Source: Nemertoderma westbladi | Lineage: Eukaryota > Animalia > Xenacoelomorpha | Length of the DNA: 64,000 nucleotides | Direction: 5' to 3' | Assembly: GCA_032718475.1 (NCBI GenBank) | Contig: JAUCBJ010001066.1 | Location: forward strand, 1-64,000 | Part shown: piece by piece, positions 24,211 through 57,901 of the stretch | How positions within the stretch are numbered: position 1 is the first letter of the stretch | Layout: each line of letters starts with the position of its first letter | Notes under the pieces: model-generated | Told to the model about the DNA's origin: nothing | Database searches by the model: none | Seen by the model: only the letters and a program-made list of their open reading frames with translations | Made by a program: the position numbers and the translations under genes

Positions 24211-24812
24211 GACGGGTCTGCTTTATCCAATCCTAGCCTTCTAAACCAATTGATACTCATAACATTCGCCGACCTAAAGAAATACCACTTCTACTACTGG
24301 TTCTGCTTCCCAGGACTGTGTCTAACTCCTATACGTTTAATCTCTAAAACAACGTTGCGCCAATCATTGTCCCCTGATCAATCATCTACCCTAGTCCGAC
24401 TCTATGACTCATATCGTTCCACCAATAGCAGCGGTTTATTCAGTCTTCGTTTAGACGGAGACACTTTGAACTTATCCGGGTTTCATGAGGACGATATGAA
24501 TAGCGACGTTTGGATTGGATGTCCGGATCCCTCTGTTTCCCCTGACTACCCCGGTTGGCCAGTGAGGAATCTAATTGCGTTGCTAGGTTACCAGATACCC
24601 AAGGGCCAATCGCGTCGCTTTGCGTTGCTGTGTTACCGTTGTCTACGCACCAGTTCGGGCAACGATGTCGGACACAGTTTGCTGCTTAACATAGAGGTTG
24701 ATGGTTACCATGGCGATACCGTGGTCCCGAAATCGGTCGGCTGGGAGAAAAATAGAAAAGGGAAAACCGCGGCCCAGATGGTCAACCTCAGTGCGTCCAT
24801 GGATCCCTTACG
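24211..24812 (+). CDS. ATG7: ATG7 coding exon 2
   Basis: Acceptor CCCTTAG|GAC. Encodes DGSALSNPSLLNQLILITFADLKKYHFYYWF...PGWPVRN...VGWEKN...MVNLSASMDPL. Donor CG|GTTAGT, phase 2. Confidence 0.92.
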
Positions 24813-27800
24813 GTTAGTAGTGCGTCCATGGACTCCCCGCGGTTAGTAGTGCGTCCATGGACTCCCCGCGGTTAGTAGTGCGTCCATGGACTCCCCGCGG
24901 TTAGTAGTGCGTCCATGGACCCCCCGCGGTTAGTAGTGCGTCCATGGACCCCCCGCGGTTAGTAGTGCGTCCATTGACCCCCCGCGGTTAGTAGTGCGTC
25001 CATGGACCCCCCGCGGTTAGTAGTGCGTCCATGGACCCCCCGCGGTTAGTAGTGCGTCCATGGACCCCCGCGGTTAGTAGTGCGTCCATGGACCCCGCGC
25101 GGTTAGTAGTGCGTCCATGGACCCCCGCGGTTAGTAGTGCGTCCATGGACCCCCGCGGTTAGTAGTGCGTCCATGGACCCCCCGCGGTTAGTAGTGCGTC
25201 CATGGACCCCCCGCGGATAGTAGTGCGTCCATGGACTCCCCGCGGTTAGTAGTGCGCCCATGGACCCCCGCGGTTAGTAGTGCGTCCATGGACCCCCGCG
25301 GTTAGTAGTGCGTCCATGGACCCCCGCGGTTAGTAGTGCGTCCATGGACCCCCCGCGGTTAGTAGTGCGTCCATGGACCCCCCGCGGTTAGTAGTGCGTG
25401 CATGGACCCCCCGCGGTTAGTAGTGCGTCCATGGACTCCCCGCGGTTAGTAGTGCGTCCATGGACCCCCCGCGGTTAGTAGTGCGTGCATGGACCCCCCG
25501 CGGTTAGTAGTGCGTCCATGGACTCCCCGCGGTTAGTAGTGCGCCCATGGACCCCCGCGGTTAGTAGTGCGTCCATGGACTCCCCGCGGTTAGTAGTGCG
25601 TCCATGGACCCCCCGCGGTTAGTAGTGCGTCCATGGACTCCCCGCGGTTAGTAGTGCGTCCATGGACCCCCGCGGTTAGTAGTGCGTCCATGGACCCCGC
25701 GCGGTTAGTAGTGCGTCCATGGACCCCCGCGGTTAGTAGTGCGTCCATGGACCCCCGCGGTTAGTAGTGCGTCCATGGACCCCCCGCGGTTAGTAGTGCG
25801 TCCATGGACCCCCCGCGGTTAGTAGTGCGTCCATGGACTCCCCGCGGTTAGTAGTGCGCCCATGGACCCCCGCGGTTAGTAGTGCGTCCATGGACCCCCC
25901 GCGGTTAGTAGTGCGTCCATGGACCCCCGCGGTTAGTAGTGCGTCCATGGACCCCCCGCGGTTAGTAGTGCGTGCATGGACCCCCCGCGGTTAGTAGTGC
26001 GTCCATGGACTCCCCGCGGTTAGTAGTGCGTCCATGGACCCCCCGCGGTTAGTAGTGCGTCCATGGACCCCCCGCGGTTAGTAGTGCGTCCATGGACCCC
26101 CCGCGGTTAGTAGTGCGTCCATGGACCCCCGCGGTTAGTAGTGCTTCCATGGACCCCCCGCGGTTAGTAGTGCGTCCATGGACCCCCCGCGGTTAGTAGT
26201 GCGTCCATGGACTCCCCGCGGTTAGTAGTGCGTCCATGGACTCCCCGCGGTTAGTAGTGCGTCCATGGACCCCCCGCGGTTAGTAGTGCGTCCATGGACC
26301 CCCGCGGTTAGTAGTGCGTCCATGGACTCCCCGCGGTTAGTAGTGCGTCCATGGACTCCCCGCGGTTAGTAGTGCGTCCATGGATCCCTTGCGGTTAGTA
26401 GTGCGTCCATGGACTCCCCGCGGTTAGTAGTGCGTCCATGGACTCCCCGCGGTTAGTAGTGCGTCCATGGACTACCCGCGGTTAGTAGTGCGTCCATGGA
26501 CCCCCCGCGGTTAGTAGTGCGTCCATGGACTCCCCGCGGTTAGTAGTGCGTCCATGGACTCCCCGCGGTTAGTAGTGCGTCCATGGACTCCCCGCGGTTA
26601 GTAGTGCGTCCATGGACCCCCCGCGGTTAGTAGTGCGTCCATGGACCCCCGCGGTTAGTAGTGCGTCCATGGACTCCCCGCGGTTAGTAGTGCGTCCATG
26701 GACTCCCCGCGGTTAGTAGTGCGTCCATGGATCCCTTGCGGTTAGTAGTGCGTCCATGGACTCCCCGCGGTTAGTAGTGCGTCCATGGACTCCCCGCGGT
26801 TAGTAGTGCGTCCATGGACTCCCCGCGGTTAGTAGTGCGTCCATGGACCCCCCGCGGTTAGTAGTGCGTCCATGGACTCCCCGCGGTTAGTAGTGCGTCC
26901 ATGGACCCCCGCGGTTAGTAGTGCGTCCATGGACTCCCCGCGGCTAGTAGTGCGTCCATGGACTCCCCGCGGTTAGTAGTGCGTCCATGGACTCCCCGCG
27001 GTTAGTAGTGCGTCCATGGACTCCCCGCGGTTAGTAGTGCGTCCATGGCCCCCCGCGGTTAGTAGTGCGTCCATGGACTCCCCGCGGTTAGTAGTGCGTC
27101 CATGGATCCCTTGCGGTTAGTAGTGCGTCCATGGACTCCCCGCGGTTAGTAGTGCGTCCATGGACTCCCCGCGGTTAGTAGTGCGTCCATGGACTCCCCG
27201 CGGTTAGTAGTGCGTCCATGGACCCCCCGCGGTTAGTAGTGCGTCCATGGACTCCCCGCGGTTAGTAGTGCGTCCATGGACCCCCGCGGTTAGTAGTGCG
27301 TCCATGGACTCCCCGCGGCTAGTAGTGCGTCCATGGACTCCCCGCGGTTAGTAGTGCGTCCATGGACTCCCCGCGGTTAGTAGTGCGTCCATGGACTCCC
27401 CGCGGTTAGTAGTGCGTCCATGGCCCCCCGCGGTTAGTAGTGCGTCCATGGACTCCCCGCGGTTAGTAGTGCGTCCATGGACCCCCGCGGTTAGTAGTGC
27501 GTCCATGGACTCCCCGCGGTTAGTAGTGCGTCCATGGACTCCCCGCGGTTAGTAGTGCGTCCATGGACTCCCCGCGGTTAGTAGTGCGTCCATGGACTCC
27601 CCGCGGTTAGTAGTGCGTCCATGGACTCCCCGCGGTTAGTAGTGCGTCCATGGACTCCCCGCGGTTAGTAGTGCGTCCATGGACTCCCCGCGGTTAGTAG
27701 TGCGTCCATGGACCCCCGCGGTTAGTAGTGCGTCCATGGACTCCCCGCGGTTAGTAGTGCGTCCATGGACTCCCCGCGGTTAGTAGTGCGTCCATGGACT

Positions 27801-28911
27801 CCCCGCGGTTAGTAGTGCGTCCATGGACTCCCCGCGGTTAGTAGTGCGTCCATGGACTCCCCGCGGTTAGTAGTGCGTCCATGGACTCCCCGCGGTTAGT
27901 AGTGCGTCCATGGACTCCCCGCGGTTAGTAGTGCGTCCATGGACTCCCCGCGGTTAGTAGTGCGTCCATGGACCCCCGTGGTTAGTAGTGCGTCCATGGA
28001 CTCCCCGCGGTTAGTAGTGCGTCCATGGACTCCCCGCGGTTAGTAGTGCGTCCATGGACCCCCGCGGTTAGTAGTGCGTCCATGGACTCCCCGCGGTTAG
28101 TAGTGCGTCCATGGACTCCCCGCGGTTAGTAGTGCGTCCATGGACTCCCCGCGGTTAGTAGTGCGTCCATGGACTCCCCGCGGTTAGTAGTGCGTCCATG
28201 GACTCCCCGCGGTTAGTAGTGCGTCCATGGTCTCCCCGCGGTTAGTAGTGCGTCCATGGACTCCCCGCGGTTAGTAGTGCGTCCATGGACTCCCCGCGGT
28301 TAGTAGTGCGTCCATGGACTCCCCGCGGTTAGTAGTGCGTCCATGGACTCCCCGCGGTTAGTAGTGCGTCCATGGACTCCCCGCGGTTAGTAGTGCGTCC
28401 ATGGACCCCCGCGGTTAATAGTGCGTCCATGGACTCCCCGCGGTTAGTAGTGCGTCCATGGACTCCCCGCGGTTAGTAGTGCGTCCATGGACTCCCCGCG
28501 GTTAGTAGTGCGTCCATGGACCCCCCGCGGTTAGTAGTGCGTCCATGGACTCCCCGCGGTTAGTAGTGCGTCCATGGACCCCCCGCGGTTAGTAGTGCGT
28601 CCATGGGCCCCCCGCGGTTAGTAGTGCGTCCATGGACTCCCCGCGGTTAGTAGTGCGTCCATGGACTCCCCGCGGTTAGTAGTGCGTCCATGGACTCCCC
28701 GCGGTTAGTAGTGCGTCCATGGACCCCCCGCGGTTAGTAGTGCGTCCATGGACTCCCCGCGGTTAGTAGTGCGTCCATGGACCCCCCGCGGTTAGTAGTG
28801 CGTCCATGGACTCCCCGCGGTTAGTAGTGCGTCCATGGACCTCCCGCGGTTAGTAGTGCGTCCATGGACCCCCCGCGGTTAGTAGTGCGTCTATGGACCC
28901 CCGCGGTTAGT
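24790..28911 (+). repeat. 29-bp (28-bp variants) tandem array, ~143 copies, made from the ATG7 exon 2/intron 2 junction
   Basis: Unit AGTGCGTCCATGGACTCCCCGCG|GTTAGT. The first copy (24790-24818, AGTGCGTCCATGGATCCCTTACG|GTTAGT) is the last 23 coding nt plus intron +1 to +6. Confidence 0.97.
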
Positions 28912-28996: not shown

Positions 28997-29202
28997 ATTG
29001 GCTGATTCCTCAGTGGATCTGAACCTCGAATTAATGAGATGGAGGATTCTACCTCAACTCCAATTGGACGTTGTAAAGGAGGCACGGTGTTTGTTGCTAG
29101 GCGCCGGTACACTTGGTTGTGCAGTCTCCCGTTGTCTCATTGGTTGGGGCGTAAAGAATATTACTTTAATAGATAATTCCCGCGTATCTTATTCCAACCC
29201 AG
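28997..29202 (+). CDS. ATG7: ATG7 coding exon 3
   Basis: Acceptor CCACAG|A completes CGA (Arg). Encodes [16 protein letters not shown]...[11 protein letters not shown] (nucleotide-binding GxGxxG)...VSYSNP. Donor CAG|GTAAAG, phase 1. Confidence 0.93.
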
Positions 29203-30328
29203 GTAAAGTGAATGGCAAAGAGATCTAGTTACTTACAGTGCGGATCAATATTCACGTTTTTAGAATTCTGTATTTTACAGTAATAGCCATTATTGGATAG
29301 TGGTCTGGCCATACCTAAAAGACTGATATTATTAATTACCATAGACCGATAATTAATTACCATTGGATGTGCACCGATATGAGGTTTTTTTCAAAATGTT
29401 CACTGAGAAAAGTTTCTAAACGGTTAGAAAAAATTTAGAAAAATTGAATTTTGTTTAGGAAACCAAAATAAGTTTCCCAATGGCATGAATGTATTGGGAA
29501 AGTGAGAAGCAGGCCATGAAATACTGATGTATTGTTGTTTTCTACTTTAGTTTTTCATGCGGTAAATCCAGCACCTATAATATATCGAAATATTGAACTA
29601 ATTAGTCGCACTTCCACTTGGTCCTTCTACTACAGTATGACCGACTGGTAACTGTACCTAAAAACCTAATTAACACCAGCCATTATTTTTCATAAGTTTC
29701 CTGGAAAATTGCGAAAGTGATACTCGAATTTTTTCATGTTATTCACCATTCTGATTCCACGAAACAGGTTGAAAAGAAATATGAATAAGTCCAAAATATG
29801 AATTCTGGCCTCGGCTACTAAGTTGCATCAAAAAATAATTTTTTAATAATTTAATTTCAATATAGTCCACCCACAATCAATGTTACACTTTAATTGTAAT
29901 TATTTGTTTGTATTTTGGGGCAGTAAGCATTACAAAATGCTTTAAATTCGAACCATTGCCACCGCCACCGCCACCACCTTAATGAAGCTAATTCGTACTA
30001 TTCGAAAATTCAAAAAAACGTTCGCTTTTCTTGAGATAATGTCCCGATGCATTTTCGGTTGTTTCCTCCGTGAGAGAGAACTACTGTATGTTCAATGAAA
30101 CAAAAACACACTTAGACTGTAACACAGTCTATATCAACATACTTAGAAACAATTCCGGTACCACAAATAAGTGTATTTCATTTCATTGTATTTCAACGTT
30201 AATTTATACAATCTAATCTATGGATGTTAAACACACATACAAGTGTATTTCATATTAAAGAAGTTGGTACAAATGAAGCTGATGGAGTTGGATCAGATTT
30301 GGAGATTCAAGGATTCGACTAGGGTGAA

Positions 30329-31480
30329 TGTTTGCGCTTTTAAGACCTTTGACAGTTTAACCTGCCAAATTAGGATGTCTTTTAGATGATATATATTCTT
30401 TAGCTTATGACGAGTATTTGATACACTACATTAGCCGAAGCCAGTCTATGCGCAATCATTCACCCGCTGGATATACCCGGGAGACTGAATTCGGAACTTA
30501 ATGATTGATGGTGTAAGCCTACCGTATTATTCGACTGATCGTAATATATAATCTCTGACAAATATTATTCACTTTCGGGAAATATTAACAGTTCCTTTAG
30601 GACGTGGCGCTCTAAATATGTAAACAGAGTTATGACTTAAACTAGACACAACGAAAAGGCTATAGATTCACGTATATGGCGCATTCTTTAGGAGATGCTT
30701 TGTTATCAGTTACAATCATACACAATGCTGCACAATACTGCACACTAATCTGCCGACCTTCACTAAATTTGGTCACGTATAAAGAGAGCAACATACAATT
30801 TATGTCGGGCATATGAAATAGCATTAGATTCACTTCAAACCACTTAACATAGGTCGCAATCGTTTATCTGTAACCGGTCTCTCTAACCTTTAGTATATCA
30901 AGAAGGTATTGATCAGTATTCCGATATAATATTTCATCAACCAATATAATGAATAACCGACAGTAAAAGCAGTAATATTAGTAATTTATGGATAGATATG
31001 GTATGTTAACTCGATTTGCATTGGTATGGTTAGATAACAGATATACGTTCTATAATTAAGCCTACTAATGTAAAGCTAAAGAATGCTGATATACGGAGGT
31101 GCCAAAAGCCGGTGTTCTTAGGCTCTGGGCAAAAACATAACACTGAACTACTGAGTTTCTGCATCCACCTCCAAAACAGAGACAAAAAACGCTCTGATTG
31201 GTCAACCGAACAACGAGAGAACAAAGAAACAAAGAAATGTCGACGTGGCAATATCAGCTGTTAGCCGTCGTCATGGTAGCGACACTGTTTTCAAGAGTAT
31301 CTAGCTTATCGCGTCACGAGATTACGGATTATGTCCTCTAAAGTACAAATACAGAAGAAATGGCTTTTATGTCCTCTAAAACACCAGTACAGCAAGGACA
31401 CGGCCTTTTTATGCCTGGTAAACCAACCACAGAGTACTTTACAGGGAAAATAACCGGCTAATTATGCAAAAGCTTTTACA
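30329..31480 (-). repeat. 3' LTR (1152 bp)
   Basis: TGTTTGCGCTTTTAAGACC...GCAAAAGCTTTTACA. By eye it differs from the other LTR by one 13-bp indel and about six substitutions. Confidence 0.93.
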
Positions 31481-34400
31481 CCGCTCCCAGAAAATGGGAT
31501 TTAAGTCTATAAAATATAACAAATCACAGTTTCTAAAATATAAAGATACTCTAAACAGTTAGTCTTTCTTACGCAGACGGCGTTTACGCAGTTTTTTGAG
31601 GCTAGCAAGAGTCCTTTTCTCTTTGGGGCGAGCCACTTTACTAGGAGGGCTATCAATCCTGGGTGAAGGGTGCAATATGATTGCATCAGAAAGTGTAGGA
31701 TTATGGTCGGGGTATCCGCCGTTTCGATATGCTTCTCCTCGAGCTGATTTTCCTCCGCTCGTAGCTGGATACGTTCATCCAAAAACTCTCGCAGAGAATG
31801 GGTTGTCTAAGTTTGATATCTTCTTAGAGATTCTGGATTTCACAATCGAACTGAGATAAAGACAATTCGTTTATCGCTTGGACTTACTGTTACAACTTAC
31901 GTTTATCTAAGCAAACGCCGGTTTCCTTTCTGATCTTTGTAGAATAGCGTTTAACTCGTTTGGTACAACGTTCTCCGCCACTTTGGTGACAGGTTATATC
32001 GTGTTAAGCCGGGACGATGGTAAGGGTTAAACGGCGACATTAAATGTCCGCGTCCCAATCCGGTTAGGTAGAATGGGCTAATATCTAGGAAGCCCACAAC
32101 TGGGGTGCCACCAACTAATTGTTCAGGTAACACTAGATCTTTGAGCAGTGAGTACAGCTCGGGAGGATCCGTCATACTAATAGGATCAAGAGTCTGAAGT
32201 CTCACTAGGGAATGAGGAGTTCTGATCGAGTATTCCGAAACTCTGATCATTGGTTTATTTAAGGATCGTCTGAGTCGAACGAGCGTAGGTGATACATCGA
32301 ACAAGTTTCGCCCGAAACTCCCGTAAGTATAGCGAGTAAAACCGTGTTTAAAGCAACGTCTCCGCGGATGTTTATGTCTTTCCGACTGTTGGTTGGGTCT
32401 TGGGCATTCATCGCAATAATACCAAAAACGCACGTCTTGTAGGGGAAACGCGAGTGATCTCTCTCCAGCCTACAATATTCCTCCATCCGTTCGAAGCTAT
32501 CCGGTACAACAGGTAGCGATCGATCGGCGGTAAGATACATCATAGTGGAATAGAGCCGTTCGAGTTCTACCATGCGGTCATGATGTATACCTTGAGGACA
32601 TCGAGTTTCTAGATTCTGCTGACTGGCAATATCGAGATAGGTCTCTCTCAAGAATTCCAGGTATTTGGTGGAGTCGCTGCATTTATCCGGCTCTTCGACA
32701 TCTGCACCTTCGAGTCGGTTTCGAATAGAATTTTCGTGTTCAAGTCTCAGTTTATCGTTCCGCTTCCGCTGGGTATGATATTTAAATAAACCACTTCCCT
32801 TTGGTGTCTACATCGTTCGTATCGTGTAGGTCGATAGGATGACCAGTAGTTAAGAAGTCCATATACGCACCATTACGATGCGTATAGCGAGCGGCGAATT
32901 TTCTACAGTCCAACCCACGCGCAAGTTGCTCCCGGGACATTGGCGGTTAGATATAACGACCATCGTCCTCCGTAGTAGTTGGACCAGCGTCGCCGCGTAT
33001 CAAGCTATCAACAAACGCCCGTAAAGGTAGAGTATATCGCTCCCTGATACCAAGATCATCATCTATCAACTCAATCATATCTGCTATATAAGTTTATCCA
33101 TATTATAATGAGTTTATATTTAGGCGAGCGGGCGTCGCTGCCTACCCCTCTCTGCCCCCGGACAGTGCGAGATCCTCAGCGCTGGTGTACTTTCGCCGAT
33201 GTGCCTATCGCCAACGTCGTAGCTGCACAACGACTACAACAACCAGCACGAGCCACTCCACCGTCCGTCCCAAAGGCTTAGATATACTTCAGGTTCTTAC
33301 TGGAGAGTTAGGGTTACTTTCACAATTGCGACTCGCTACTGTAAACACACCTTAGTAGTAACATTCACCTACAAACGCACAAATTCCACGTAACAGTCAC
33401 AAATGGTACACATTCTATCACACATTCGGGTCATTTGTCCGTTAGTCAAGTGCCTTCCAGAATGTCACGTTGTTATTATGTATCCTTGGATACTAGCGGT
33501 GCGCTATTTATTCCATATGCTATTCAATGAGCAAGCTTTTTATTGTTCTATTAACTCGCTTCTAATTCTAGCGTGGTTGTTGCTATGGTGACATTATGGA
33601 AAGCTAGCGGTAGAATTAGGGTAATTCCCATGCATACAGATCTGGGATGCTATTTAATAGTAAGTCTTTAATGGTCAATATCATCTTTATATATGATTTT
33701 ATGAATTTTATCGGCTATTGACTCTATATTGGAGATTCTCACACTCTAACACACTTAATAGGATGAATCTCCGCTCCCGTGATCTATTAATTAATGGGAT
33801 TTTGGGAATGTTATAAATTGCATAAAATTGCAATTTATTAAATTCATTAAAGTATGAATTTAAATTTATTCCCTGAAATTTTATTATTTGATAGTTAAAT
33901 TGACACAATTTGATTCCAGAGCATATCTGGGGACATATGATCCTTGATTCTATGAATTTGTCTTTTTAAGAGTATCGGTAAATGCTACGATATCTTAATC
34001 GACTAGAATGTTAAAGGATCTAAAATTTGACAGATTTTGTAAATATTAATAATTAATATTTAGGATGGGCACCAGTTTATTCCAGAACTTGTCTGGGGAC
34101 GTTAACCACTGATTCTAGAATTTTGTCTTTCAAGTATATCGGTGGGTGCCGCGATATCTTAATCGACTAGAATTGCAGATGGTCAAATGGTTTAACAGAT
34201 TTATTTTGCGTTATACGCTACTGTTAAAGGGACATCACACTACTATATGTATTATTTAATATACGGTATGAGAGCAATATCGCACGAGGCAATGTCAGTG
34301 AGAAGAGGCAAGTCGTTTCCAAGGTCTACCCAGAGCTTGGTTTAGCCGAGACACGAGGATCTGAACTTTGCATTCCTAATACTCTGCCTACCAATAATAC

Positions 34401-34721
34401 TTGAATATAGTAGTGGCTTTATTGTACTTTAATAAGTACGGACATTTCATCTTACTGTAGTTACGTATTCGTAATGTAATACGGGCAGCAAGGAAAGAGA
34501 AAAAGAATTATTTCTCGCCGTCGCACTAAATATAATATACAAGTAATTAAGTAATAAACACTAATATATTGCACTGATCTACTAAATAATCACTAAATAA
34601 CATTCTACTAAATAAAATTAAAGAAAACGATTATAATAAAATTACATAATAATACATACATCATATAAAATAATAAAAATAAATATAAAATAATATAGTC
34701 ACACACCCACTCCGTATGTTG

Positions 34722-36407
34722 TTACGTTATGGAGTCCCTAGATATTTGTTGGATTAGGGAGGTGGTCGTGGGAAGAGTATCTTGCCTTCCATAGTTTCCG
34801 GACAGTTTTCGGTCTCTTTCCGGTAAACATAAACGACCAGCTGGGCGATTGAGTGGTTGTGTTACTTTCTCCGCTCCCTTGGCCTGTCTAATCTTCGCCG
34901 GGTTAAGATGGGGAGGCCATTCATCTTCTTTACTTAGGAAGTCGGGTTCACCTAACCAGTCTGGAGTATCTGTAAGTTCTTGAGGAGTTGCTCCTCTGGA
35001 GGCGATGTCGGCTAGATTGATCGTCTCGGGGCAATGTCTCCATTGATCTTCATTGGAGTTGATGTCGTCATGACCTGAGGAGTATGGTGTTCCCTCAGTT
35101 GGGTCGTCAACTTCACTGCTCTCCACTTCCTGTTCACTTAATTGATATACCTGTTCTTTTGGTAATCTTTCCATAAGAGTTCTACGAGAAGGGCCAGTAA
35201 AGTACCAACCTACTCTAGTTCTTCCCGCATAAACTTGTAGAGGTTGCGGTTGAGCAGGCCGTTTCTCCAATGTCTCGAGCGCTTCATGCGCATTTTGACC
35301 GATGAGTATTTGGACTCCAGGATAATCGGTGTTGAATCTAGGTATTTCAAACTGCTGGGTGAAATCATCCTCATCCCAATTATAAAGGTCTGCTTGAGTA
35401 GTAGCGAAGTTCTTTATAGCCACCATTTTCACTGACCTTATGCTATGTTCTCCTAGTTCGTCCTGGGGGGTGGACAACGCACCTACATAATAATCCGCTG
35501 TTACTGTAGATTTCCAAACCTGCATAATCCCTGACATGTTTAGCTTAGTTCGGAACTTGGGTTGTCCAGCGAATATGTCTTCGGCTAGCTCTTTGTCGAT
35601 GAATGTTCCTGTACTACTGGAGTCAAGGAGGGCGTTCACTACATAACTCCTTTTTGGTCCGTGGACCCTTACCTGTACCACAGGAAATTCTCTAATCCCT
35701 ACATTGGAAGTTGGCGCTTTCCAAAATGGTGGTTGATCAGAAGTAGTTAGAGTGAGGTCACTTTCTGTATCTTTTTCATAAGTAAGTGCTCGATACACTG
35801 CGGTATTTGTTAGGTAACAGGATTCGTTTTCGTCGGAGAATTCGTCCGTATAGAATCCTTCCATCTCAGAATATTGGTCAGTGTCGTTCACATCACTGAA
35901 TTGGACATGTAGTTCGGACTCACTTACCTGACTCGGGCTGTTTCGTTCGAATTCCGTGTGCAACAAGATATGATGTTTTGCGCCGCACTTTGCACACCTT
36001 ACGTCGGAGTAACAGGTTCGCCGTTGGTGTCCTCGTCTGAGGCAATTATAACACAACCGCTTATCCCACATGACTTCACGTCTGTCCTTTAGTGATTTCC
36101 TCAGGAATTCATCACACGCACTTAAACGGTGGGGCCCGTCGCACAGCACACATTTGGGCTTGATGTTACTTACTTTAACATGTGCTGTGTGGTGCACGTT
36201 CGTTCTTTCCTCGGGCTTTCTCACCTGAATTCTCTTGGGAGACGTAGGAGGAGTTTTTCTTACCTGTTCTCTCCTGTCATTGGTTCGAGACTTGAATTTA
36301 CTTACCTGGTCTGTAGGCGTTTTATTGACATAATAAGATCTTTCAGTGTCTTTCCCGCTATCCTCTCCTTGAGAAGTCTGGCTTTCGCCGTCGTCTGTAT
36401 AACACAC
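34722..36407 (-). CDS. BEL/Pao gag zinc knuckles plus aspartic protease, fused to a short RNase H C-terminal remnant (RT and integrase deleted)
   Basis: CVLCDGPHRLSAC, CYNCLRRGHQRRTC and CAKCGAKHHILLH form the BEL triple knuckle. ALLDSSSTGTFI is the protease site. WRHCPETINLADIASRG..P..L is the end of the Pao RNase H region. No YxDD RT or integrase motifs. Confidence 0.85.
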   Translation of the reverse strand: MCYTDDGESQTSQGEDSGKDTERSYYVNKTPTDQVSKFKSRTNDRREQVRKTPPTSPKRIQVRKPEERTNVHHTAHVKVSNIKPKCVLCDGPHRLSACDEFLRKSLKDRREVMWDKRLCYNCLRRGHQRRTCYSDVRCAKCGAKHHILLHTEFERNSPSQVSESELHVQFSDVNDTDQYSEMEGFYTDEFSDENESCYLTNTAVYRALTYEKDTESDLTLTTSDQPPFWKAPTSNVGIREFPVVQVRVHGPKRSYVVNALLDSSSTGTFIDKELAEDIFAGQPKFRTKLNMSGIMQVWKSTVTADYYVGALSTPQDELGEHSIRSVKMVAIKNFATTQADLYNWDEDDFTQQFEIPRFNTDYPGVQILIGQNAHEALETLEKRPAQPQPLQVYAGRTRVGWYFTGPSRRTLMERLPKEQVYQLSEQEVESSEVDDPTEGTPYSSGHDDINSNEDQWRHCPETINLADIASRGATPQELTDTPDWLGEPDFLSKEDEWPPHLNPAKIRQAKGAEKVTQPLNRPAGRLCLPERDRKLSGNYGRQDTLPTTTSLIQQISRDSIT

Positions 36408-36442
36408 TGGTGTTATCCTTCTCCTAGAAACGGGTTTCTCAC

Positions 36443-45028: not shown

Positions 45029-45159
45029 TATATATACCCGTTTAATGGGTTTTGTCAATGTTTGAAATAAATGTTATTATTTCTGGGGGAGTCACTACAC
45101 ATAAGCTGTGCGCTCTCAGTGGAGTGCTACTTGTTAGACACTAAAACAAATAATTCTAA

Positions 45160-47292: not shown

Positions 47293-47860
47293 TACGCTAC
47301 GCGTACAAACTACTCAAACAAAATGCAGACCAAATACTGACAGACTACTATCAAGCCTAAACAAACTACGGTATATGCAGACTCCGAAATGATTAGTTAG
47401 TATGCGTTCTAACCCAGTAGTACGACTTATTCTTTCACAGGGGGTTTACCTCACAGCACTTGAAGCCCCTACTTTCCTAACTTAGCACTTTATCGGACAG
47501 ATGCTCTACACACACCGAAATTTCCTCAAACCCAACAACAGCCAGACAACTATCCAGCCTACAAATTATCTAAATAAAATTATACGCTACCCGTACAGAC
47601 TACACAAACAAAGTACAGACCAAACGCTGGCGGACTCCTATCAGGCCTAAATAAACCACAGGACATGCAGACTCCGAAATGGTTAAGTAGTATGCATTCT
47701 AACCCAGTAGTACGACTTATTCTTTAGATGGGGGTTTACCTTACAGCTATGGCTGCCCCTACTTCCTAACCGTTCTTTATCGGACATACACTCTACATGC
47801 ACTGCAATCCGTTCAGACCTAATCAACAGTTAGCCAACAGTCAAGCCTACAAATTATCTG
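47293..47860. repeat. Two diverged ~290-bp tandem units in the retrotransposon leader
   Basis: TACGCTAC...GCAGACTCCGAAATG...TTCTAACCCAGTAGTACGACTTATTCTTT...AGCCTACAAATTATCT at 47293 and 47583. Confidence 0.8.
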
Positions 47861-48160
47861 TACAATCTGAGCAGGCTTACACGCCTTCTGCTCAATACTG
47901 GCCTACAAATAAATAAAACTTGACAGAAACAAGTAAAATCTCAATAAAAAACCAGGGCGGCCGTCCCTGATTAATTATTAAGGCCTACCGGTATATAATT
48001 ATCAAAATCGAATAATACTGATGTACCTGTACCGTAAGTACCGGTTCGGATGATCAGGCAGTCAGGCCTACTGGTTACAGCAGTACAGGTTACCGTTCGA
48101 CCGGTACCGGTACTTTAGACTAGATTGCTTACACCGCAATCCAGAAGCTATATCTGTTAT

Positions 48161-49325
48161 TGTATGCGCTTTTAAGACCTTTGACAGTTTAACCTGCCAA
48201 ATTAGGATGTCTTTTAGATTATATATATTCTTTAGCTTATGACGAGTATTTGATACACTACATTAGCCGAAGCCAGTCTATGCGCAATCATTCACCCGCT
48301 GGATATACCCGGGAGACTGAATTCGGAACTTAATGATTGATGGTGTAAGCCTACCGTATTATTCGACTGATCATAATATATAATCTCTGACAAATATTAT
48401 TCACTTTCGGGAAATATTAACAGTTCCTTTAGGACGTGGCGCTCTAAATATGTAAACAGAGTTATGACTTAAACTAGACACAACGAAAAGGCTATAGATT
48501 CACGTATATGGCGCATTCTTTAGGAGATGCTTTGTTATCAGTTACAATCATACACAATGCTGCACAATACTGCACACTAATCTGCCGACCTTCACTAAAT
48601 TTGGTCACGTATAAAGAGAGCAACATACAATTTATGTCGGGCATATGAAATAGCATTAGATTCACTTCAAACCACTTAACATAGGTCGCAATCGTTTATC
48701 TGTAACCGGTCTCTCTAACCTTTAGTATATCAAGAAGGTGGGGTGTCTGACTATTGATCAGTATTCCGATATAATATTTCATCAACCAATATAATGAATA
48801 ACCGACAGTAAAAGCAGTAATATTAGTAATTTATGGATAGATATGGTATGTTAACTCGATTTGCATTGGTATGGTTAGATAACAGATATACGTTCTATAA
48901 TTAAGCCTACTAATGTAAAGCTAAAGAATGCTGATATACGGAGGTGCCAAAAGCCGGTGTTCTTAGGCTCTGGGCAAAAACATAACACTGAACTACTGAG
49001 TTTCTGCATCCACCTCCAACACAGAGACAAAAAACGCTCTGATTGGTCAACCGAACAACGAGAGAACAAAGAAACAAAGAAATGTCGACGTGGCAATATC
49101 AGCTGTTAGCCGTCGTCATGGTAGCGACACTGTTTTCAAGAGTATCTAGCTTATCGCGTCACGAGATTACGGATTATGTCCTCTAAAGTACAAATACAGA
49201 AGAAATGGCTTTTATGTCCTCTAAAACACCAGTACAGCAAGGACACGGCCTTTTTATGCCTGGTAAACCAACCACAGAGTACTTTACGGGGAAAATAACC
49301 GGCTAATTACGCAAAAGCTTTTACA
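48161..49325 (-). repeat. 5' LTR (1165 bp)
   Basis: TGTATGCGCTTTTAAGACC...GCAAAAGCTTTTACA, with an extra GGGGTGTCTGACT at ~48740-48752. Confidence 0.93.
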
Positions 49326-50983: not shown

Positions 50984-51150
50984 TCCGCCAGTGCCTTTAC
51001 GAATTCAACGATTGCCTGGAAGGCGGCGCTAAGAAGGCTGAATGTGCGGCTTCCCATCTCAAACGAATATTTCCTGGAGTCAACGCTGTTGGTATAGAAC
51101 TCAGTGTACCAATGCCGGCCCACACACTGGCTGACTCAATGGTAGAACAG
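50984..51150 (+). CDS. ATG7: ATG7 coding exon 4 (not in the ORF track)
   Basis: Acceptor TTTTTATTTGCAG|TC completes GTC (Val). Encodes VRQCLYEFNDCLEGGAKKAECAASHLKRIFPGVNAVGIELSVPMPAHTLADSMVEQ, continuing SNP|VRQ of ATG7. Donor CAG|GTAGGG, phase 0. Confidence 0.92.
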
Positions 51151-52912
51151 GTAGGGACTCAGTGTACCAATGCCGACCCACACACTGGCTGACTCAATGG
51201 TAGAACAGGTAGGGACTCAGTGTACCAATGCCGGCCCACACACTGGCTGACTCAATGGTAGAACAGGTAGGGAGGGACTCAGTGTACCAATGCCGGCCCA
51301 CACACTGGCTGACTCAATGGTAGAACAGGTGGGGACTCAGTGTACCAATCCCGGCCCACACACTGGCTGACTCAATGGTAGAACAGGTAGGGACTCAGTG
51401 TACCAATGCCGGCCCACACACTGGCTGACTCAATGGTAGAACAGGTAGGGACTCAGTGTACCAATGCCGGCCCACACACTGGCTGACTTAATGGTAGAAC
51501 AGGTAGGGACTCAGTGTACCAATGCCGGCCCACACACTGGCTGACTCAATTGTAGAACAGGTAGGGACTCAGTGTACCAATGCCGGCCCACACACTGGCT
51601 GACGCAATGGTAGAACAGGTAGGGACTCAGTGTACCAATGCCGACCCACACACTGGCTGACTCAATTGTAGAACAGGTGGGGACTCAGTGTACCAATCCC
51701 GGCCCACACACTGGCTGACGCAATGGTAGAACAGGTAGGGACTCAGTGTACCAGTGCCGGCCCACACACTGGCTGACGCAATGGTAGAACAGGTAGGGAC
51801 TCAGTGTACCAATGCCGGCCCACACACTGGCTGACTCAATGGTAGAACAGGTAGGGACTCAGTGTACCAATGCCGACCCACACACTGGCTGACTCAATTG
51901 TAGAACAGGTGGGGACTCAGTGTACCAATCCCGGCCCACACACTGGCTGACGCAATGGTAGAACAGGTAGGGACTCAGTGTACCAATGCCGGCCCACACA
52001 CTGGCTGACGCAATGGTAGAACAGGTAGGGACTCAGTGTACCAATGCCGGCCCACACACTGGCTGACTCAATGGTAGAACAGGTAGGGACTCAGTGTACC
52101 AATGCCGGCCCACACACTGGCTGACTCAATTGTAGAACAGGTGGGGACTCAGTGTACCAATCCCGGCCCACACACTGGCTGACTCAATGGTAGAACAGGT
52201 AGGGACTCAGTGTACCAATCCCGGCCCACACACTGGCTGACTCAATGGTAGAACAGGTTGGGGGTCAGTGTACCAATGCCGGCCCACACACTGGCTGACT
52301 CAATGGTAGGAGAGGTTGGGAATCAGTGTACCAATGCCGGCCCACACACTGGCTGACTCAATGGTAGAACAGGTAGGGACTCAGTGTACCAATGCCGGCC
52401 CACACACTGGCTGACTCAATGGTAGAACAGGTAGGGACTCAGTGTACCAATGCCGGCCCACACACTGGCTGACTCAATGGTAGAACAGGTAGGGACTCAG
52501 TGTACCAATGCCGACCCACACACTGGCTGACTCAATGGTAGAACAGGTAGGGACTCAGTGTACCAATGCCGGCCCACACACTGGCTGACTCAATGGTAGA
52601 ACAGGTAGGGACTCAGTGTACCAATGCCGGCCCACACACTGGCTGACTCAATGGTAGAACAGGTAGGGACTCAGTGTACCAATGCCGGCCCACACACTGG
52701 CTGACTCAATGGTAGAACAGGTAGGGACTCAGTGTACCAATGCCGGCCCACACACTGGCTGACTCAATGGTAGAACAGGTAGGTAGGGACTCAGTGTACC
52801 AATGCCGGCCCACACACTGGCTGACTCAATGGTAGAACAGGTAGGGACTCAGTGTACCAATGCCGGCCCACACACTGGCTGACTCAATGGTAGAACAGGT
52901 AGGAACTCAGTG
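51099..52912 (+). repeat. 58-bp tandem array, 31 copies, made from the ATG7 exon 4/intron 4 junction
   Basis: Unit ACTCAGTGTACCAATGCCGGCCCACACACTGGCTGACTCAATGGTAGAACAG|GTAGGG, which is 52 coding nt plus intron +1 to +6. Confidence 0.97.
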
Positions 52913-52946
52913 AGTTGTGTGACTCAGTAAATTGTTTGTTTTATAG

Positions 52947-53168
52947 GTGAAGCGTGATGTGCGCACTCTAGAGGAGTTAATAAGAACTCATGATTGCATA
53001 TTCTTATTAATGGATTCCAGAGAGAGCCGTTGGTTACCGACTATGTTGGCGACAGCCAATAGGAAACTAGTGATTAACGCGGCCTTGGGATTCGATACTT
53101 ATATGGTGATGCGTCATGGTGTCCCCGCTGATAATCAACTAGAAGGGGACGATAACATTATTAACCAG
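52947..53168 (+). CDS. ATG7: ATG7 coding exon 5
   Basis: Acceptor TTTTATAG|GTG. Encodes [31 protein letters not shown]...[17 protein letters not shown]. Donor CAG|GTAAAG, phase 0. Confidence 0.93.
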
Positions 53169-53466
53169 GTAAAGTACAACCAAAACTCAACTGTTTTTGA
53201 CACCATTAATTATTTAGATGGTGATGGACACATCAAATTGTAATTAACTAATTTAAAATTAAATGTTAGAAAATTCAGCGCATTTCACTTTACCGATTAA
53301 TGCAATGTATTGACGATAGTAAAACAAATTGATCATATTATATTAGCTAATTGATTATCCTCGCAAGAGTTAATTAAAATTAGGTCAACATATCGTTTTA
53401 GAACCTATGATAGGAAAATCGATGTGTTGGTCTAGCAGCTAGGGATAGCATAGTGTGTGTGATACC

Positions 53467-54381
53467 TTAATTAGTTAAAGAACAATATTGGTGATTAATG
53501 CCAGTTTGTGTGACTGTGACCAGTCTGTAACCAGGTTTATCGTCACCTATCTGCAGACTTACTGCCGACGTAACAATCTGTTCTACGCCGTTCCACGAAC
53601 TAACCGCGTTCCTATGGTAATGACCACAGAATACGGCTGTCACTCCTGCCTGTTTGAACTTATCGAGCATCGGTTTACGGAGCTCCATCGGTAGCGAGAA
53701 ATACTTCGACTTATCTGAGTTCCTTGGGGAGTCGATATCGCCAAGGTAATAGGGGATGTGTTGGAATACTAAGGCCTGTTTACAGCCCTTGATTCCCGCC
53801 AAAACCCTGTCCACCCATTGGTCCATACCTAGCCTCTCAGCAGACGCTTTACTGTCGTCCATATAGAGCTGGGAGTTTAACACGACCATCGCAACTCCGC
53901 CCACCCAGAACGAGTAGTAATCGTCGCCGAATGTCCGCCGATACTGAGCGATAGTCTGCGGGGTTGGGGATTCCCCGACGTCGTGGTTCCCACAGACGCA
54001 CAACAAGGGAACCTCGGGTCGTAGTTTACGGAACGCCGATATGAAGTCGCGTTCCATCGCCCCGCGTTGCTTCATCCACGGGTAGCCGTGGACCTGGTCC
54101 CCGCATACGATGAGGAACCGCGGCGACGGGTCCATTCGGTTTACCGTGTCGACGAGACGAGCGACCCTCGCCAACTCCTCGTCCCACACGAGATCGTTGC
54201 GGAGTTCGCTCTGCATTCGATCCACGTTGAAGTCGTCTATGAGTCCGAGTTGCGTGTCCGCCGCTTGTATAAAACTGAAGCCACCTCTCCACTCGCCCTC
54301 ACTTTCTTTACTCAATCCTATATGATCTAAGGAACGGTTGATCGCTTTGTGTTGGAGTTCCTCCATTACTGTGTCTGACAT
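53467..54381 (-). CDS. CPPED1: Calcineurin-like Ser/Thr phosphoesterase CPPED1, 304 aa, single coding exon, nested antisense in ATG7 intron 5
   Basis: Metallophosphoesterase motifs FIQAADTQLG, VCGDQVH, CGNHDVG, FQHIP and FCGHYHRN, plus CPPED1-typical FGDDYYSFWVGGV...VLNSQ. Confidence 0.88.
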   Translation of the reverse strand: MSDTVMEELQHKAINRSLDHIGLSKESEGEWRGGFSFIQAADTQLGLIDDFNVDRMQSELRNDLVWDEELARVARLVDTVNRMDPSPRFLIVCGDQVHGYPWMKQRGAMERDFISAFRKLRPEVPLLCVCGNHDVGESPTPQTIAQYRRTFGDDYYSFWVGGVAMVVLNSQLYMDDSKASAERLGMDQWVDRVLAGIKGCKQALVFQHIPYYLGDIDSPRNSDKSKYFSLPMELRKPMLDKFKQAGVTAVFCGHYHRNAVSSWNGVEQIVTSAVSLQIGDDKPGYRLVTVTQTGINHQYCSLTN

Positions 54382-54641
54382 CTGGTTGTTTTCCTATTTA
54401 CTGGTTTATACTCCATTAGGCTACTCAGATAGTGGCCCTGCGAACATTGAGCTGGTAGTTGTTTTGAACGACACTAGCCGAACAAGCCTGAAATCAGATA
54501 AATAGTTTTTTTTGTTTTACTTTACGCTTTTAATGACAATTATATTACCGTGTAAATAAATATTAACTCATAAATGGGTAAATCCCAAATGGCGGGAAAT
54601 TCAAACCGATATAGTATTTCAGTATTTCAGTCTGTGTACTG

Positions 54642-54770
54642 TACACGTTCGTGGGGCCTTCGCGCAGCACGAGGCCCAGTTATGAGATACAAATTAAAAT
54701 TGAGCGACTGTATCACAAAATCAGGTTTTGAGAAATTTACCCACACCACCAATCAATCAAAGAAAGGGTG
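54642..54770 (+). repeat. Short dispersed repeat with a GC-rich hairpin (second copy 60607-60725)
   Basis: ACACGTTCGTGGGGCCTTCGCGCAGCACGAGGC.CAGTTAT.AGA.ACAAATTAA occurs at both positions. Confidence 0.7.
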
Positions 54771-54888
54771 ACAGTACGTGTTCACCCCTTTTAATCCCCC
54801 CCCCCCCACCCTTCCCAACCACCAATACATAACCGCGACATCTACCACCCACGGAAGGGTAGCACGAACTTATTTCCAATCGCACGTT

Positions 54889-55180
54889 CAATATGCAAAG
54901 CCAGGTGGTTTATAGGAATATAATAAACGCAGTACTCGTTTTCATTATAAGCCTCGTTGCGTTCGTCCTGTTTTGTATTTAAATATATTTCTTAAACGCA
55001 GGCTAGGACGATCTTTATAATAATAATAACTAGGGATGCGATCAATATGTGAAGCCAGGTGGTTTATATAATAATTTAGTCAACGCAGTACTCGTCTTCA
55101 TTATATGCCTCGTTGCGCTCGTCGCTTGTCCTGTTTTGTCATAAAATATTTTTCCTAAACGCAGACTGACGATCTTTATA
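54889..55180. repeat. Two diverged ~150-bp tandem units
   Basis: AATATG..AAGCCAGGTGGTTTATA...AACGCAGTACTCGT...GCCTCGTTGCG...TAAACGCAG...GACGATCTTTATA occurs twice. Confidence 0.7.
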
Positions 55181-56419
55181 CAGTTATAACTATGCGAAGT
55201 TTCGAAACTGTGCGAGTAACTGTTGATACATCTATGTGGAGATGTGTGATATGTGGAGATGTGTGATACAACGCCAACGCATCTTATGCCGATGTAGTAA
55301 TATGGGTATTGAAATAATATTAAATCAATGTACACTCTTAAAGCTGCAGCGAAAAAATGTAGCTAATTTCCTAGGTTACATATAAAATAATAATATTATT
55401 TTTAAGAACATTAATTTTACTACTTTGCAAAAATTCAATTAAAAAATAACCAGACATATACATTGTGGAATAAACTATTTCAGAAGCCTACAACAGCCAT
55501 GCCATGGATTGTATTTATGTTATTATATCTGTCATTTACCTGAGATAGCAATAGTAGTAGTAGTCGAACGGTTATGCGGCCCGTCCAGCCTATAATAAAC
55601 ACAATTCAGTGATAGTGATAATAATACAACACTTATAGTAGAGTCAATAGGAATTGGAATACAGGAAGGATGTTGGGATGTTGGATTTAAAGAATGCTGT
55701 CTGGGCTGGAATAGCAATACTGGTTGCCTATTACAATTCCTCTCTGGTTAGTCTACAGCCACAACTCCCAGCTAGCTAGCTCCACACCAGCAGAGACTTG
55801 ACCAATAATGGGAAGGATTAAATTTGTACTCAATAATTGTGCCGTTTAATTACGTTTAGATCAATTAAAGACACATTTATTAAAGCAAATCACTTGAACT
55901 AATTAAAAACTATAATAGAATGGCGTATGTGGATTACATCTGTATAATTTTTAAGTATAATTATTTAAATCTTATACTGTAAAACAATTAATTTCCTTTA
56001 AAAGGCAGGTTGAAAATGGTGTTTTCACCGTAATCAACTTAATTAACTAATTAACTGCTATTATCTTAGCTTCTCGAAGGCCACACGGAAATTCTACTTG
56101 GAAAATTTCTAAACTTTTGCCAAACAACATGTGTACCAAGTTTGGATAGATTTCATCAAAGATTGGCCGAGTTATTAACGTTTAAAATTGAACGCGACAG
56201 AACGACAGGTTGATTAATGGTACCACTACGCTAAGGCTCACTCACTTCGTGGCTCGCCCCACATGGGACCTATCGATGCCAGTGGACGTCATGGACTACC
56301 CCCCATGCCCCCCCCCCCCCCCCCCCCGCATATCATCGCATAATCCATTTAGAATTCTCAAATCAGGCATGGAATCCATGGCAGCTGCACGATATTGATT
56401 TGCCTGAGGACGTTCAGGG

Positions 56420-56770
56420 CAAATTTGTTAGGAATATTTCAGGTCTGACGGGATAGCTTATGATGATAAATTAGCTCAGATCGGTCTTACAACTCTATCA
56501 GATCGGAGAAAATGGGGTGATGTGATTCAAACCTTCAAAATTATCAACAGTATAGATAATGTTGAAAATAATTGGTTCAAGTTGTAAGACACCGAATCAA
56601 ACAAGACAATTGGTTTCGATGTCGAATAATGGGGTACCAATACCCAAGTTGAGTGTAGTTCCTCCTAAGTGGGAGTTTCGAAAGAACTTTTTTAGCTGTC
56701 GTGTTGTAAATGACTGGAACAACCTCCCTCAAGAGACACAATTTCAAAAAAGATACGACAAGTTTATTAA
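56420..56770 (+). mobile_element. 3' fragment of a CR1-group LINE
   Basis: Translates to YDDKLAQIGLTTLSDRRKWGDVIQTFKII and RKNFFSCRVVNDWNNLP, typical CR1 ORF2 C-terminal motifs, with stops and frameshifts. Confidence 0.75.
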
Positions 56771-57043
56771 TTTTATAATTAAAGAAGATTTCTAAAGACG
56801 TTTAAGCATTAAAAACGTTCAATAAACAAAATAGTAATAAAATAAAATAAAAAAATGCAAAATAGTGCAATAAACCTATATATTATTATATTATTATCAT
56901 ATTTTGACTAGGTGAGGGGGACATAATCCTCTAGCAGATGTTTACCCACCTAGGACCAAATCTGCTAGCAGCGAGGGGATTTATGTTAGCCTGATTGATA
57001 TAAACGGAGGGCGGACTTTTCTAACCAAAGTTGTTTTCTTCAG

Positions 57044-57226
57044 GGCCTTGCTGCGGATAATAAACGACTGGGCTGTTATTTCTGTAACGATGTCGTCGCA
57101 CCTGGCGACTCTACCAGGGATCGAACTCTCGACCAACAATGCACCGTCAGCCGACCTGGTCTATCTATGCTCACTGCCGCGCTCGCTGTAGAACTCTTTG
57201 TCTCCGTATTGCAGCACCCTCTACAG
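57044..57226 (+). CDS. ATG7: ATG7 coding exon 6 with the catalytic cysteine (not in the ORF track)
   Basis: Acceptor TTTTCTTCAG|GGC. Encodes [31 protein letters not shown]...[16 protein letters not shown]. Ends at a non-canonical donor CAG|GCAAGT, phase 0. Confidence 0.92.
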
Positions 57227-57494
57227 GCAAGTTTACGAACTCTGTATTAGAAGCTCGATGAAAATTGATAAACTACATACAGAAAGGCTATTTAACTAAA
57301 TTTCCGCAATAATAATAATTAATTTTAAACCAAATTTAAATTCTAAAATAAATTCTAACCCTAACCTTATATAGCTATTATTTATATACACACACACTGC
57401 TAAGGCTAACTACAGTACTTTATCTAAATCCTGCTTAATGGCTACAGTAGTTCACTAACTATTTCCAGTTTGGTTCCCAGATTTGACTCCCCTT

Positions 57495-57901
57495 TGTTTC
57501 CTTAGGGTTTAGCACCCGCTATATCTTCAGCCAATGACACCCATCTAATGGTTGAACCCTGTTGTTTCCTTAGGGTTTGGCACCCGCTATATCTTCAGCC
57601 AATGACACCCATCTAATGGTTGAACCCTGTTGTTTCCTTAGGGTTTGGCACCCGCTATATCTTCAGCCAATGACACCCATCTAATGGTTGAACCCTGTTG
57701 TTTCCTTAGGGTTTGGCACCCGCTTTATCTTCAGCCAATGACACCCATCTAATGGTTGAACCCTGTTGTTTCCTTAGGGTTTAGCACCCGCTATATCTTC
57801 AGCCAATGACACCCATCTAATGGTTGAACCCTGTTGTTTCCTTAGGGTTTGGCACCCGCTATATCTTCAGCCAATGACACCCATCTAATGGTTGAACCCT
57901 G
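57495..57901 (+). repeat. 68-bp tandem array, 6 copies, made from the ATG7 intron 6/exon 7 junction
   Basis: Unit TGTTTCCTTAG|GGTTTGGCACCCGCTATATCTTCAGCCAATGACACCCATCTAATGGTTGAACCCTGT. AG acceptors end at 57505, 57573, 57641, 57709, 57777 and 57845. Confidence 0.96.

Follow-up and report, generated by a model that had tools for sequence, protein, structure and literature searches.

The window analysed, a stretch of 64,000 nucleotides from Nemertoderma westbladi, carries on its forward strand an ATG7 gene of seven exons; the positions below are on that strand unless otherwise given. The coding part of exon 1 extends in an open frame from the ATG (23271–23609), and spliced contigs from two runs (X1 and X5) then skip the 601 nt of intron 1, which has GT..AG ends. 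Exon 2 (24211–24812) is 37-42% identical to ATG7 from numerous animals among the best 120 of the 498 matches listed, and in the spliced contigs of both runs it joins exon 3 (28997–29202) through a single repeat unit, a loose end at 24809 continuing into exon 3. Exon 4 (50984–51150) is supported by an X5 contig in which unique exon-4 sequence is followed by one unit and then by exon 5 (52947–53168), which holds part of the ThiF domain (Pfam PF00899, E 1.5e-6) and is bounded by contig joints. Exon 6 (57044–57226) is delimited by X5 joints at 53165-57041 and 57224-57504, and the donor that follows it reads GC. The coding part of exon 7, which begins at the last acceptor and ends with the stop (57846–58180), is in open frame, and here the X5 contig passes from one repeat unit into unique exon-7 sequence. 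When the first donor, the first donor and the last acceptor are taken at the three arrays described below, the seven exons give an open frame of 684 aa, and this complete model is 49-51% identical to the five homologues listed.

Three mutually unrelated tandem arrays were found in this gene, at the positions first read from the sequence, and each repeats an exon edge together with its splice signal. All are head-to-tail minisatellites with 96-98% matches. Array 1 (24790–28911; period 29, 143 copies) lies in intron 2 (aa 313, phase 2) and repeats a donor, the final 23 nt of exon 2 being the exon part of its first unit. Its unit comprises 23 exon and 6 intron nt; the period of 29 bp and the 143 copies given by the sequence-only reading stand, but the units vary between 28 and 29 nt, 25 of the 143 being 28 nt long. 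Array 2 (51099–52912; period 58, 31.1 copies) also repeats a donor and occupies intron 4 (aa 438, phase 0, 48-nt core). It consists of 31 units, 58 nt long except for two of 62 nt, plus an 8-10-nt overlap, and its first unit takes its exon part from the final ~52 nt of exon 4. Array 3 (57490–57901; period 68, 6.1 copies) repeats an acceptor; it lies in intron 6, the last of the gene, and its six units of 68 nt extend over 57494–57901, the final one opening exon 7; the division of this unit, previously read as 11+57, was corrected to 12 intron and 56 exon nt. An array is borne by 3 of the 12 splice sites of ATG7, the intron parts of the units are short throughout (6, 4-14 and 12 nt), and the splice sites opposite the arrays are unique sequence. 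Collapsing the arrays leaves introns of 91, 48 and 279 nt, in agreement with the earlier figures; with its array, intron 2 measures 4184 nt as compared to 91, and intron 4 measures 1796 nt as compared to 48.

The units bear discrete recurring variants, the order of which forms repeated blocks. In array 1 the exon copy is unlike nearly all internal ones (exon-type sequence is kept in 3 of 142 inner units), and the last unit of array 2 has a private base. Arrays 1 and 2 fit a concerted evolution of the inner units from which the edge copies are excluded; in array 3 such an exclusion was not evident.

The consequences of choosing each internal site were as earlier proposed. All 142 internal donors of array 1 lead to a premature stop (aa 324-331), as do the 30 internal donors of array 2 (aa 451) and the five upstream acceptors of array 3 (aa 597-609), and the 684-aa protein is obtained only from the outermost site of each array. 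The signals themselves are nearly all intact: GT is kept in 140 of 143 units of array 1 and in all 31 of array 2, and AG in all six of array 3. We also considered that the inner donors might be weaker than the real ones, and rejected this, as their consensus match is equal: against the donor consensus, inner and first donors of array 1 both score 6/9, and first and last donors of array 2 both score 7/9.

The sites used in RNA were read from the spliced contigs. One X5 contig of 1666 nt (depth 1356.6; two records taken as one contig) spans all three arrays. Between window positions 24809 and 52945 it holds 374 nt, exactly 3+206+167-2, which indicates one unit each of arrays 1 and 2 in the RNA. 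One unit per array is thus present in X5, and X1 also has one unit at arrays 1 and 2; the units used are those of the first donor, the first donor and the last acceptor, respectively. For array 3 this is shown by one contig from one sample (X5), the DNA of which was not seen; X1 had no cover over exons 6-7 and carries no weight there, and none is given to runs with a share of 0.04 from organisms B and C. Bin depths in X5 were 678.3 and 578.6 at arrays 2 and 3, as compared to 678.3 and 578.55 for the spliced contig alone, and the X1 bin depth of 5.66 likewise corresponds to a single spliced contig of 5.65. Since bin depth equals the depth of the spliced contig, no contig with a tandem junction is present at arrays 2 and 3, and neither X1 nor X5 yielded any inner-site junction contig. 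The need for the outermost site, originally deduced from the reading frame, is therefore seen in RNA: normal mRNA is made from the outer site as the major form. Minor use of inner sites may still occur, as rare forms drop out of contigs. Apparently, 142, 30 and 5 decoy sites are ignored in one conserved gene.

Repeats of this type, for which the term 'mirage' minisatellite reportedly comes from a separate naming paper, are known, as are comparable cases in F7, CBS, 6-16, LAMIN B2 and PDGF, and the suggestion that the arrangement is undescribed was consequently dropped; the ATG7 arrays, whose periods fall within the ~10-160 bp of mirage units, are likely a clear new example of mirage repeats and not a new system. 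Amphioxus mirages occur in Adh3, the globins BflGb6 and BflGb9, troponin C and PGBD5, at both boundary types and with splicing undisturbed (PMC3087553, PMC3902484). They resemble the ATG7 arrays in consisting of tandem units across the exon/intron boundary, in having donor and acceptor types, in normal splicing and in the escape of edge copies from homogenisation; the units in Adh3 measure 10-72 bp (PMC3087553). They differ in occurring in another animal, the ATG7 described here being ~50% identical to that of amphioxus, and in their far lower copy numbers (3-6 in BflGb6, as compared to 143 and 31), whereas here three arrays lie in a gene with just six introns. In intron 7 of human F7, the first unit of a 37-bp VNTR spans the boundary and is followed by identical pseudo-donors, and experiment shows that only the most upstream donor is used (PMC1557585). 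The F7 unit holds 4 exon and 33 intron nt in 5-9 copies, whereas the ATG7 units are mostly exon, and F7 is a donor case only, unlike array 3. Minisatellites in human 6-16, CBS intron 13, LAMIN B2 and PDGF intron 4 reiterate a donor 10-25 times, and in 6-16 and CBS the two donors that come next are used as well (PMC1557585), a use not seen in the ATG7 contigs. The unusual rule of splice-site choice invoked by the sequence-only reading is not supported, first-donor use being experimental for F7; no evidence emerged in this analysis for the stepwise removal that it offered instead.

The explanation that we consider the most probable is that three independent minisatellites span the ATG7 boundaries, having likely arisen from ordinary short tandem duplications and likely been kept since the outermost site wins. 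A slip of replication or repair would have duplicated 29-68 nt. The host introns being short (91, 48 and 279 nt), duplications touching them would often or always cross a splice site: of the placements that touch the collapsed intron, 46%, 100% and 38% cross one junction (whole-intron placements excluded). Out-of-frame duplications within an exon would be purged. The inner copies would then expand and homogenise via slippage and unequal exchange, while the site adjoining the full-length exon (first donor, last acceptor) would be chosen, as per exon definition; as that site is still chosen, the arrays would be close to neutral. For acceptors this outer-site rule is our inference. Reed and Maniatis are said to have provided, in 1986, an in vitro precedent on acceptor choice; a literature search for duplicated-acceptor experiments, which most subscription papers lay beyond, produced no match. 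Of the options put forward at the outset, a filter tolerating only such duplications is the one that fits best.

The breakpoints were compared with microhomology-mediated tandem duplication, described as a common, mostly neutral source of duplications that is depleted from coding regions (PMC13167724). Array 2 shares with it a 10-nt end repeat and survivors that spare the coding frame: 10 identical nt are found at 51097-51106 (exon 4) and 52903-52912 (the end of array 2), with a chance probability of ~1e-5, and represent either microhomology or a truncated end unit. Due to this identity at both ends, the breakpoint of array 2 may fall at any position between intron +4 and +14, and the common '+6' boundary earlier perceived in the units is not established. 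The microhomology at array 3 is imperfect and weak, with 4 nt only, and array 1 has no perfect microhomology at its unit ends; the main text of PMC13167724 gave 0 hits for 'splice' or 'intron'. The absence of clear microhomology at arrays 1 and 3, and the possibility that the match at array 2 is a truncated unit, weaken the explanation by ordinary duplication. Its near-neutrality is similarly weakened by human 6-16 and CBS, in which the next two donors are indeed used.

A further weakness is that random placement hardly yields three junction arrays among the 7-10 in the window. The probability of at least three arrays on a junction was 2e-5 to 5e-4 under five nulls, with no correction for the window having been picked post hoc from ~250,000. 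At a P of 1e-5 to 5e-5, one would expect 2.5-12.5 such windows per 250,000 comparable ones, and 0.5-2.5 per 50,000; these figures are rough, as many windows are not animal. Short introns explain why arrays landing there cross a junction, not why they land there. One possible alternative is that in this lineage duplications arise preferentially at splice sites, e.g. through co-transcriptional R-loops, polymerase pausing or exon-edge breaks. The occupation of 3 of 12 ATG7 splice sites, the low in-window P, the short intronic parts of all three units and the presence of mirages in several amphioxus genes (PMC3087553, PMC3902484), the origin of which was termed unclear in a 2010 paper (PMC3087553), all speak for such a bias. 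It is nevertheless unlikely, since the window was chosen post hoc, the shared '+6' coincidence fails and further arrays in the window (21 bp x45, 14 bp x9, and ~450-bp units in intron 3) sit off splice sites. The broader proposition, that duplications in the lineage occur preferentially at exon edges via a transcription- or splicing-coupled lesion and that mirages are a main growth route of tiny introns, is similarly unlikely. Literature searches, in which few subscription papers were covered, found no study that surveyed repeats on splice sites across a genome. An origin by back-splicing or circular RNA was rejected, as intron letters of the donor or acceptor are still present at the tandem junctions. 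On the minus strand, an acceptor-like stretch occurs within the 21-bp array (12713-13670), but no gene for it was found among ORFs of at least 120 aa.

Selection might also keep the arrays in order to tune ATG7 output, inner sites giving rise to stop transcripts and copy number setting the share that is lost. All inner sites are unproductive and nearly all splice signals intact, as such tuning would have it, and CBS and 6-16 do use inner donors (PMC1557585). Intact signals, however, are expected of young, homogenised copies. Among the 141 inner units of array 1, 3 of the 17 substitutions outside the C-tract fall on GT, as compared to 1.5 expected; on numbers so small, nothing points to the decoy donors being protected, nor is a clear purge of them seen. 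The lack of inner-site junction contigs in either spliced run also argues against tuning, which we regard as improbable. A weak hint of length variation comes from the DNA samples, in which the summed contig depth of array 2 was ~158 vs ~557 at unique depths of 22 vs 11. Samples S1 and S2 differed in their edge variants and also in contig depth, but contig depth is not copy number.

These DNA contigs also bear on whether the arrays, or their lengths, are artefacts of the assembly. In short-read DNA of two samples (X2 and X4), contigs break and depth rises at arrays 2 and 3. At array 2 the contigs begin at 52874 (X2) and 52883 (X4), the former being the point at which 31-mers turn unique in the window, and bin depth was 110.7 vs 22.3 (X2) and 347.1 vs 10.6 (X4). 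At array 3 contigs stop at 57520 and 57541, with bin depths of 49.2 vs 17-20 and 23.6 vs 7-12. Arrays 2 and 3 are therefore no artefacts of the assembly. The DNA runs gave no direct view of array 1: both contigs end at 24808-24809, where a heterozygous base at 24810 is an alternative cause. Copy numbers rest on one assembly only; yet, with discrete recurring variants in ordered blocks and with contigs of two samples broken at the margins of arrays 2 and 3, an artefact is very improbable.

Least probable of all is that the duplications created the introns by tandem-duplication gain at AG|GT sites: intron 4 does lie at such a site, with four letters fitting either side of the joint, and its position is absent from all 80 ATG7 loci compared, but intron 2 occupies an ancient position, shared in place and phase by 8 of the 80, intron 6 lies within ~1 nt of a position found in 7 of the 80, the similarity of the intron-4 core to the flanking exon ends is not significant (31/200 and 12/200 shuffles, and 5/34 and 4/34 other AGGT sites, score as high), and, as the opposite sites are unique, both splice sites of an intron did not come from a duplicated exon segment, so that the original view that this is not classical intron gain is upheld. 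A search of these 80 metagenome loci with TRF found no long array, the loci being compact genes or transcripts and hence a poor control.

The value of the ATG7 arrays is that of a dense, RNA-supported test case of a known oddity. Array 3, which belongs to the rarer acceptor type, sits in the last intron; a wrong choice there truncates ATG7 near aa 600. By the exon-junction rule, errors in a last intron, having no downstream junction, would not be hidden by NMD, and array 3 therefore offers a clean test of first-AG scanning against exon definition. Here the acceptor used is the sixth and not the first; the first retains the native intron tail. If true, this last-intron array would be a natural proof of terminal-exon definition over first-AG scanning.

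The three minisatellites spanning ATG7 splice sites were recovered by Tandem Repeats Finder at the positions claimed by the sequence-only reading: array 1 at the intron 2 donor (24790-28911, 29 bp x143), array 2 at the intron 4 donor (51099-52912, 58 bp x31) and array 3 at the intron 6 acceptor (57490-57901, 68 bp x6). Seven plus-strand exons (23271-23609, 24211-24812, 28997-29202, 50984-51150, 52947-53168, 57044-57226 and 57846-58180) yield a 684-aa open frame if splicing takes the first donor at arrays 1 and 2 and the last acceptor at array 3. Exon 2 matched ATG7 across animals at ~40% identity, none of the best 120 of 498 matches being closely related. The full model was ~50% identical to five homologues (including amphioxus, oyster, jellyfish and mouse), with no additional sequence at the junctions of the two donor arrays; at the array 3 junction the alignment was gapped and the region variable. 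As had been claimed, every inner site breaks the frame, with premature stops in 142/142, 30/30 and 5/5 cases for arrays 1, 2 and 3, and introns 2, 4 and 6 collapse to 91, 48 and 279 nt.

The array 1 unit indeed consists of 23 exon and 6 intron nt; its exon copy is unique within the window, and no perfect microhomology was found at this array. Exon-type sequence is retained in three of its 142 inner units, all with the base at 24810 that is found in the contigs of both spliced sequencing runs (X1 and X5), which fits an array that arose from that allele and whose inner copies then drifted. In array 2, 10 nt of exon 4 (51097-51106) recur identically in the last unit (52903-52912, intron +5 to +14); given this match, the breakpoint could fall at any position between +4 and +14, and the proposed recurrence of +6 at both donors is not established. 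The array 3 unit was corrected to 12 intron plus 56 exon nt, versus the 11 plus 57 first reported. Within the 48-nt core of intron 4, 11 nt from its start, lies a second donor-like hexamer (52910-52915), out of frame; the spliced contigs do not use this hexamer, which could be a donor that predated array 2.

Random placement on the collapsed window with its 12 splice sites gave a probability of at least three junction arrays of 2e-5 with 7 arrays and 4e-4 with 10 (larger repeats included); the value was 6e-5 when GC-matched, 7e-5 with mobile DNA excluded and 5e-4 with both. Such values would favor mutation targeted to splice sites; however, this window had been picked out of ~250,000 as surprising, so that even in the absence of bias a few or indeed many windows of this kind would be expected. 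Of the placements touching collapsed introns 2, 4 and 6, 46%, 100% and 38% cross one junction, a 58-nt unit being unable to fit inside the 48-nt intron 4. Elsewhere, too, the window tends to carry tandem repeats. Targeted mutation is unlikely, though the best of the alternatives. Most probably, an ordinary short tandem duplication at a short intron would have started each array, slippage and unequal exchange would have expanded it, and the array, presumably neutral, would have survived because the splice site adjoining the complete exon would be the one chosen. An intergenic minisatellite with no host gene seen (12713-13670, 21-bp x45) includes, on its minus strand, a run of pyrimidines with AG at its end.

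Five sequencing runs of one organism contain over half of the exon-2 words, and four of these runs were examined (X1, X2, X4 and X5; three samples from three studies, all as contigs, not reads). X1 and X5 were treated as RNA despite a "DNA?" label, because introns are skipped at GT..AG ends. Both join exon 2 through one array 1 unit to exon 3, and one array 2 unit to exon 5; X5, the source for splicing at array 3, joins exon 6 (GC donor) through one unit to unique exon 7. A 1666-nt X5 contig holds 374 nt between 24809 and 52945, the exact single-copy length, if two 1666-nt records are one contig. These correctly joined contigs answer the concern that this copy might be unexpressed or mis-spliced. 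The X5 bin depths at arrays 2 and 3 equal those of the single spliced contig alone, so no tandem-junction contig was present there; contigs do, however, lose rare forms. All six array 3 acceptors look usable, since branch-point-like motifs precede them all (by 26 nt in the inner units, where exon sequence contributes the motif; by 20 and 48 nt at the first acceptor). In the one contig it is the last acceptor that wins, a choice that exon definition may underlie. It is improbable that the arrays are a selected tuning device.

X2 and X4 cover introns and behave as DNA; X2 shares its sample with X1, and in that sample RNA and array 2 are thus seen together. At array 2, the unique X2 contig begins at 52874, exactly where window 31-mers become unique, and the X4 contig at 52883, 30 nt short of the first base beyond the repeat, with bin depths of 110.7 vs 22.3 (X2) and 347.1 vs 10.6 (X4). 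At array 3, one DNA contig terminates at 57520, where three letters stay unaligned, and the other at 57541; the depths are 49.2 vs 17-20 and 23.6 vs 7-12. Given these breaks and raised depths, two samples do contain arrays 2 and 3, and the window may itself derive from one of them. At array 1 both DNA contigs terminate at 24808-24809, where a heterozygous base would equally explain the break, and all copy numbers are those of the assembly. That the arrays or their lengths are assembly artefacts is very unlikely.

Comparison was made with the best 80 of 191 ATG7 loci on metagenome contigs (introns inferred in 57, by automated placement with some calls surely wrong). Position 313 phase 2, that of intron 2, is common to 8, so that the intron hosting array 1 is ancient. 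Seven have an intron at position 572 phase 2, which is one nucleotide off intron 6; the offset is possibly a 1-nt slide or alignment ambiguity. Introns 1, 3, 4 and 5 had no match in position and phase in these loci. A duplication origin of intron 4 was not significant, and intron gain by duplication, of the classical AGGT kind already rejected by the sequence-only reading, is the least credible explanation. Intron 6 (57227-57845) is a GC-AG intron. ATG7 (23271-58180) lacks positions common elsewhere in the 80 loci (107/0, 362/0, 415/0, 478/0, 534/0 and 628/0), and homologue isoform gaps also fall at 362, 415, 478, 534 and 628. The absent common and four unmatched positions suggest that this lineage has lost many introns and gained new ones.

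The genome looks intron-poor: hnRNP U-like protein (6058-8351, plus strand; HeH, SPRY, AAA_33) and the RNase H2 catalytic subunit (16158-17057, minus strand), whose genes have many introns in most animals, are intronless frames here. Most of the 21.8-kb ATG7 intron 3 is a stretch (30324-49325) in which ~1.15 kb direct repeats, starting near 30324 and 48156, flank a long minus-strand ORF with DUF1759, a domain typical of Bel/Pao LTR elements; a ~7 kb higher-order tandem repeat (39530-46630, unit near 450-460 bp) also lies in this intron. Nested antisense in intron 5 is a single-exon calcineurin-like phosphoesterase gene (53467-54393, minus strand; Pfam Metallophos), presumably CPPED1-like, over which X1 and X5 both have contigs. 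Two broken LINE-like elements were seen at 17900-20350 (plus strand; a reverse-transcriptase domain, then a poly(A) run and 5-bp microsatellite) and 61600-63030 (minus strand).

The sequence-only reading knew of no description of such repeats as a system; the same type is known from amphioxus as mirages, and from human F7 and other genes. Most Adh3 minisatellites reportedly belong to this class, in which case a gene with several of them would not be new. According to PMC3087553 and PMC3902484, mirages occur in Adh3, two globins, troponin C and PGBD5 as tandem repeats across exon/intron boundaries, at donors as well as at acceptors; they leave splicing undisturbed, and their origin is called unclear. 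Four of five mirage features were found in the ATG7 arrays; as to the fifth, length polymorphism or somatic instability, samples differ in edge variants and in contig depth, which does not measure copy number. In F7, experiment showed that the most upstream among identical donors is used, with 6-16, CBS, LAMIN B2 and PDGF as further cases (PMC1557585, in part); human repeats that shift splicing add nothing on origin in the available part of PMC10078293. A literature search of incomplete coverage found no genome-wide test of repeat enrichment at splice sites. The ATG7 arrays are real, well supported and a further case of an already known repeat type; the boldest reading, that splice-site-directed duplication would be a lineage-wide route of intron growth, is unlikely.
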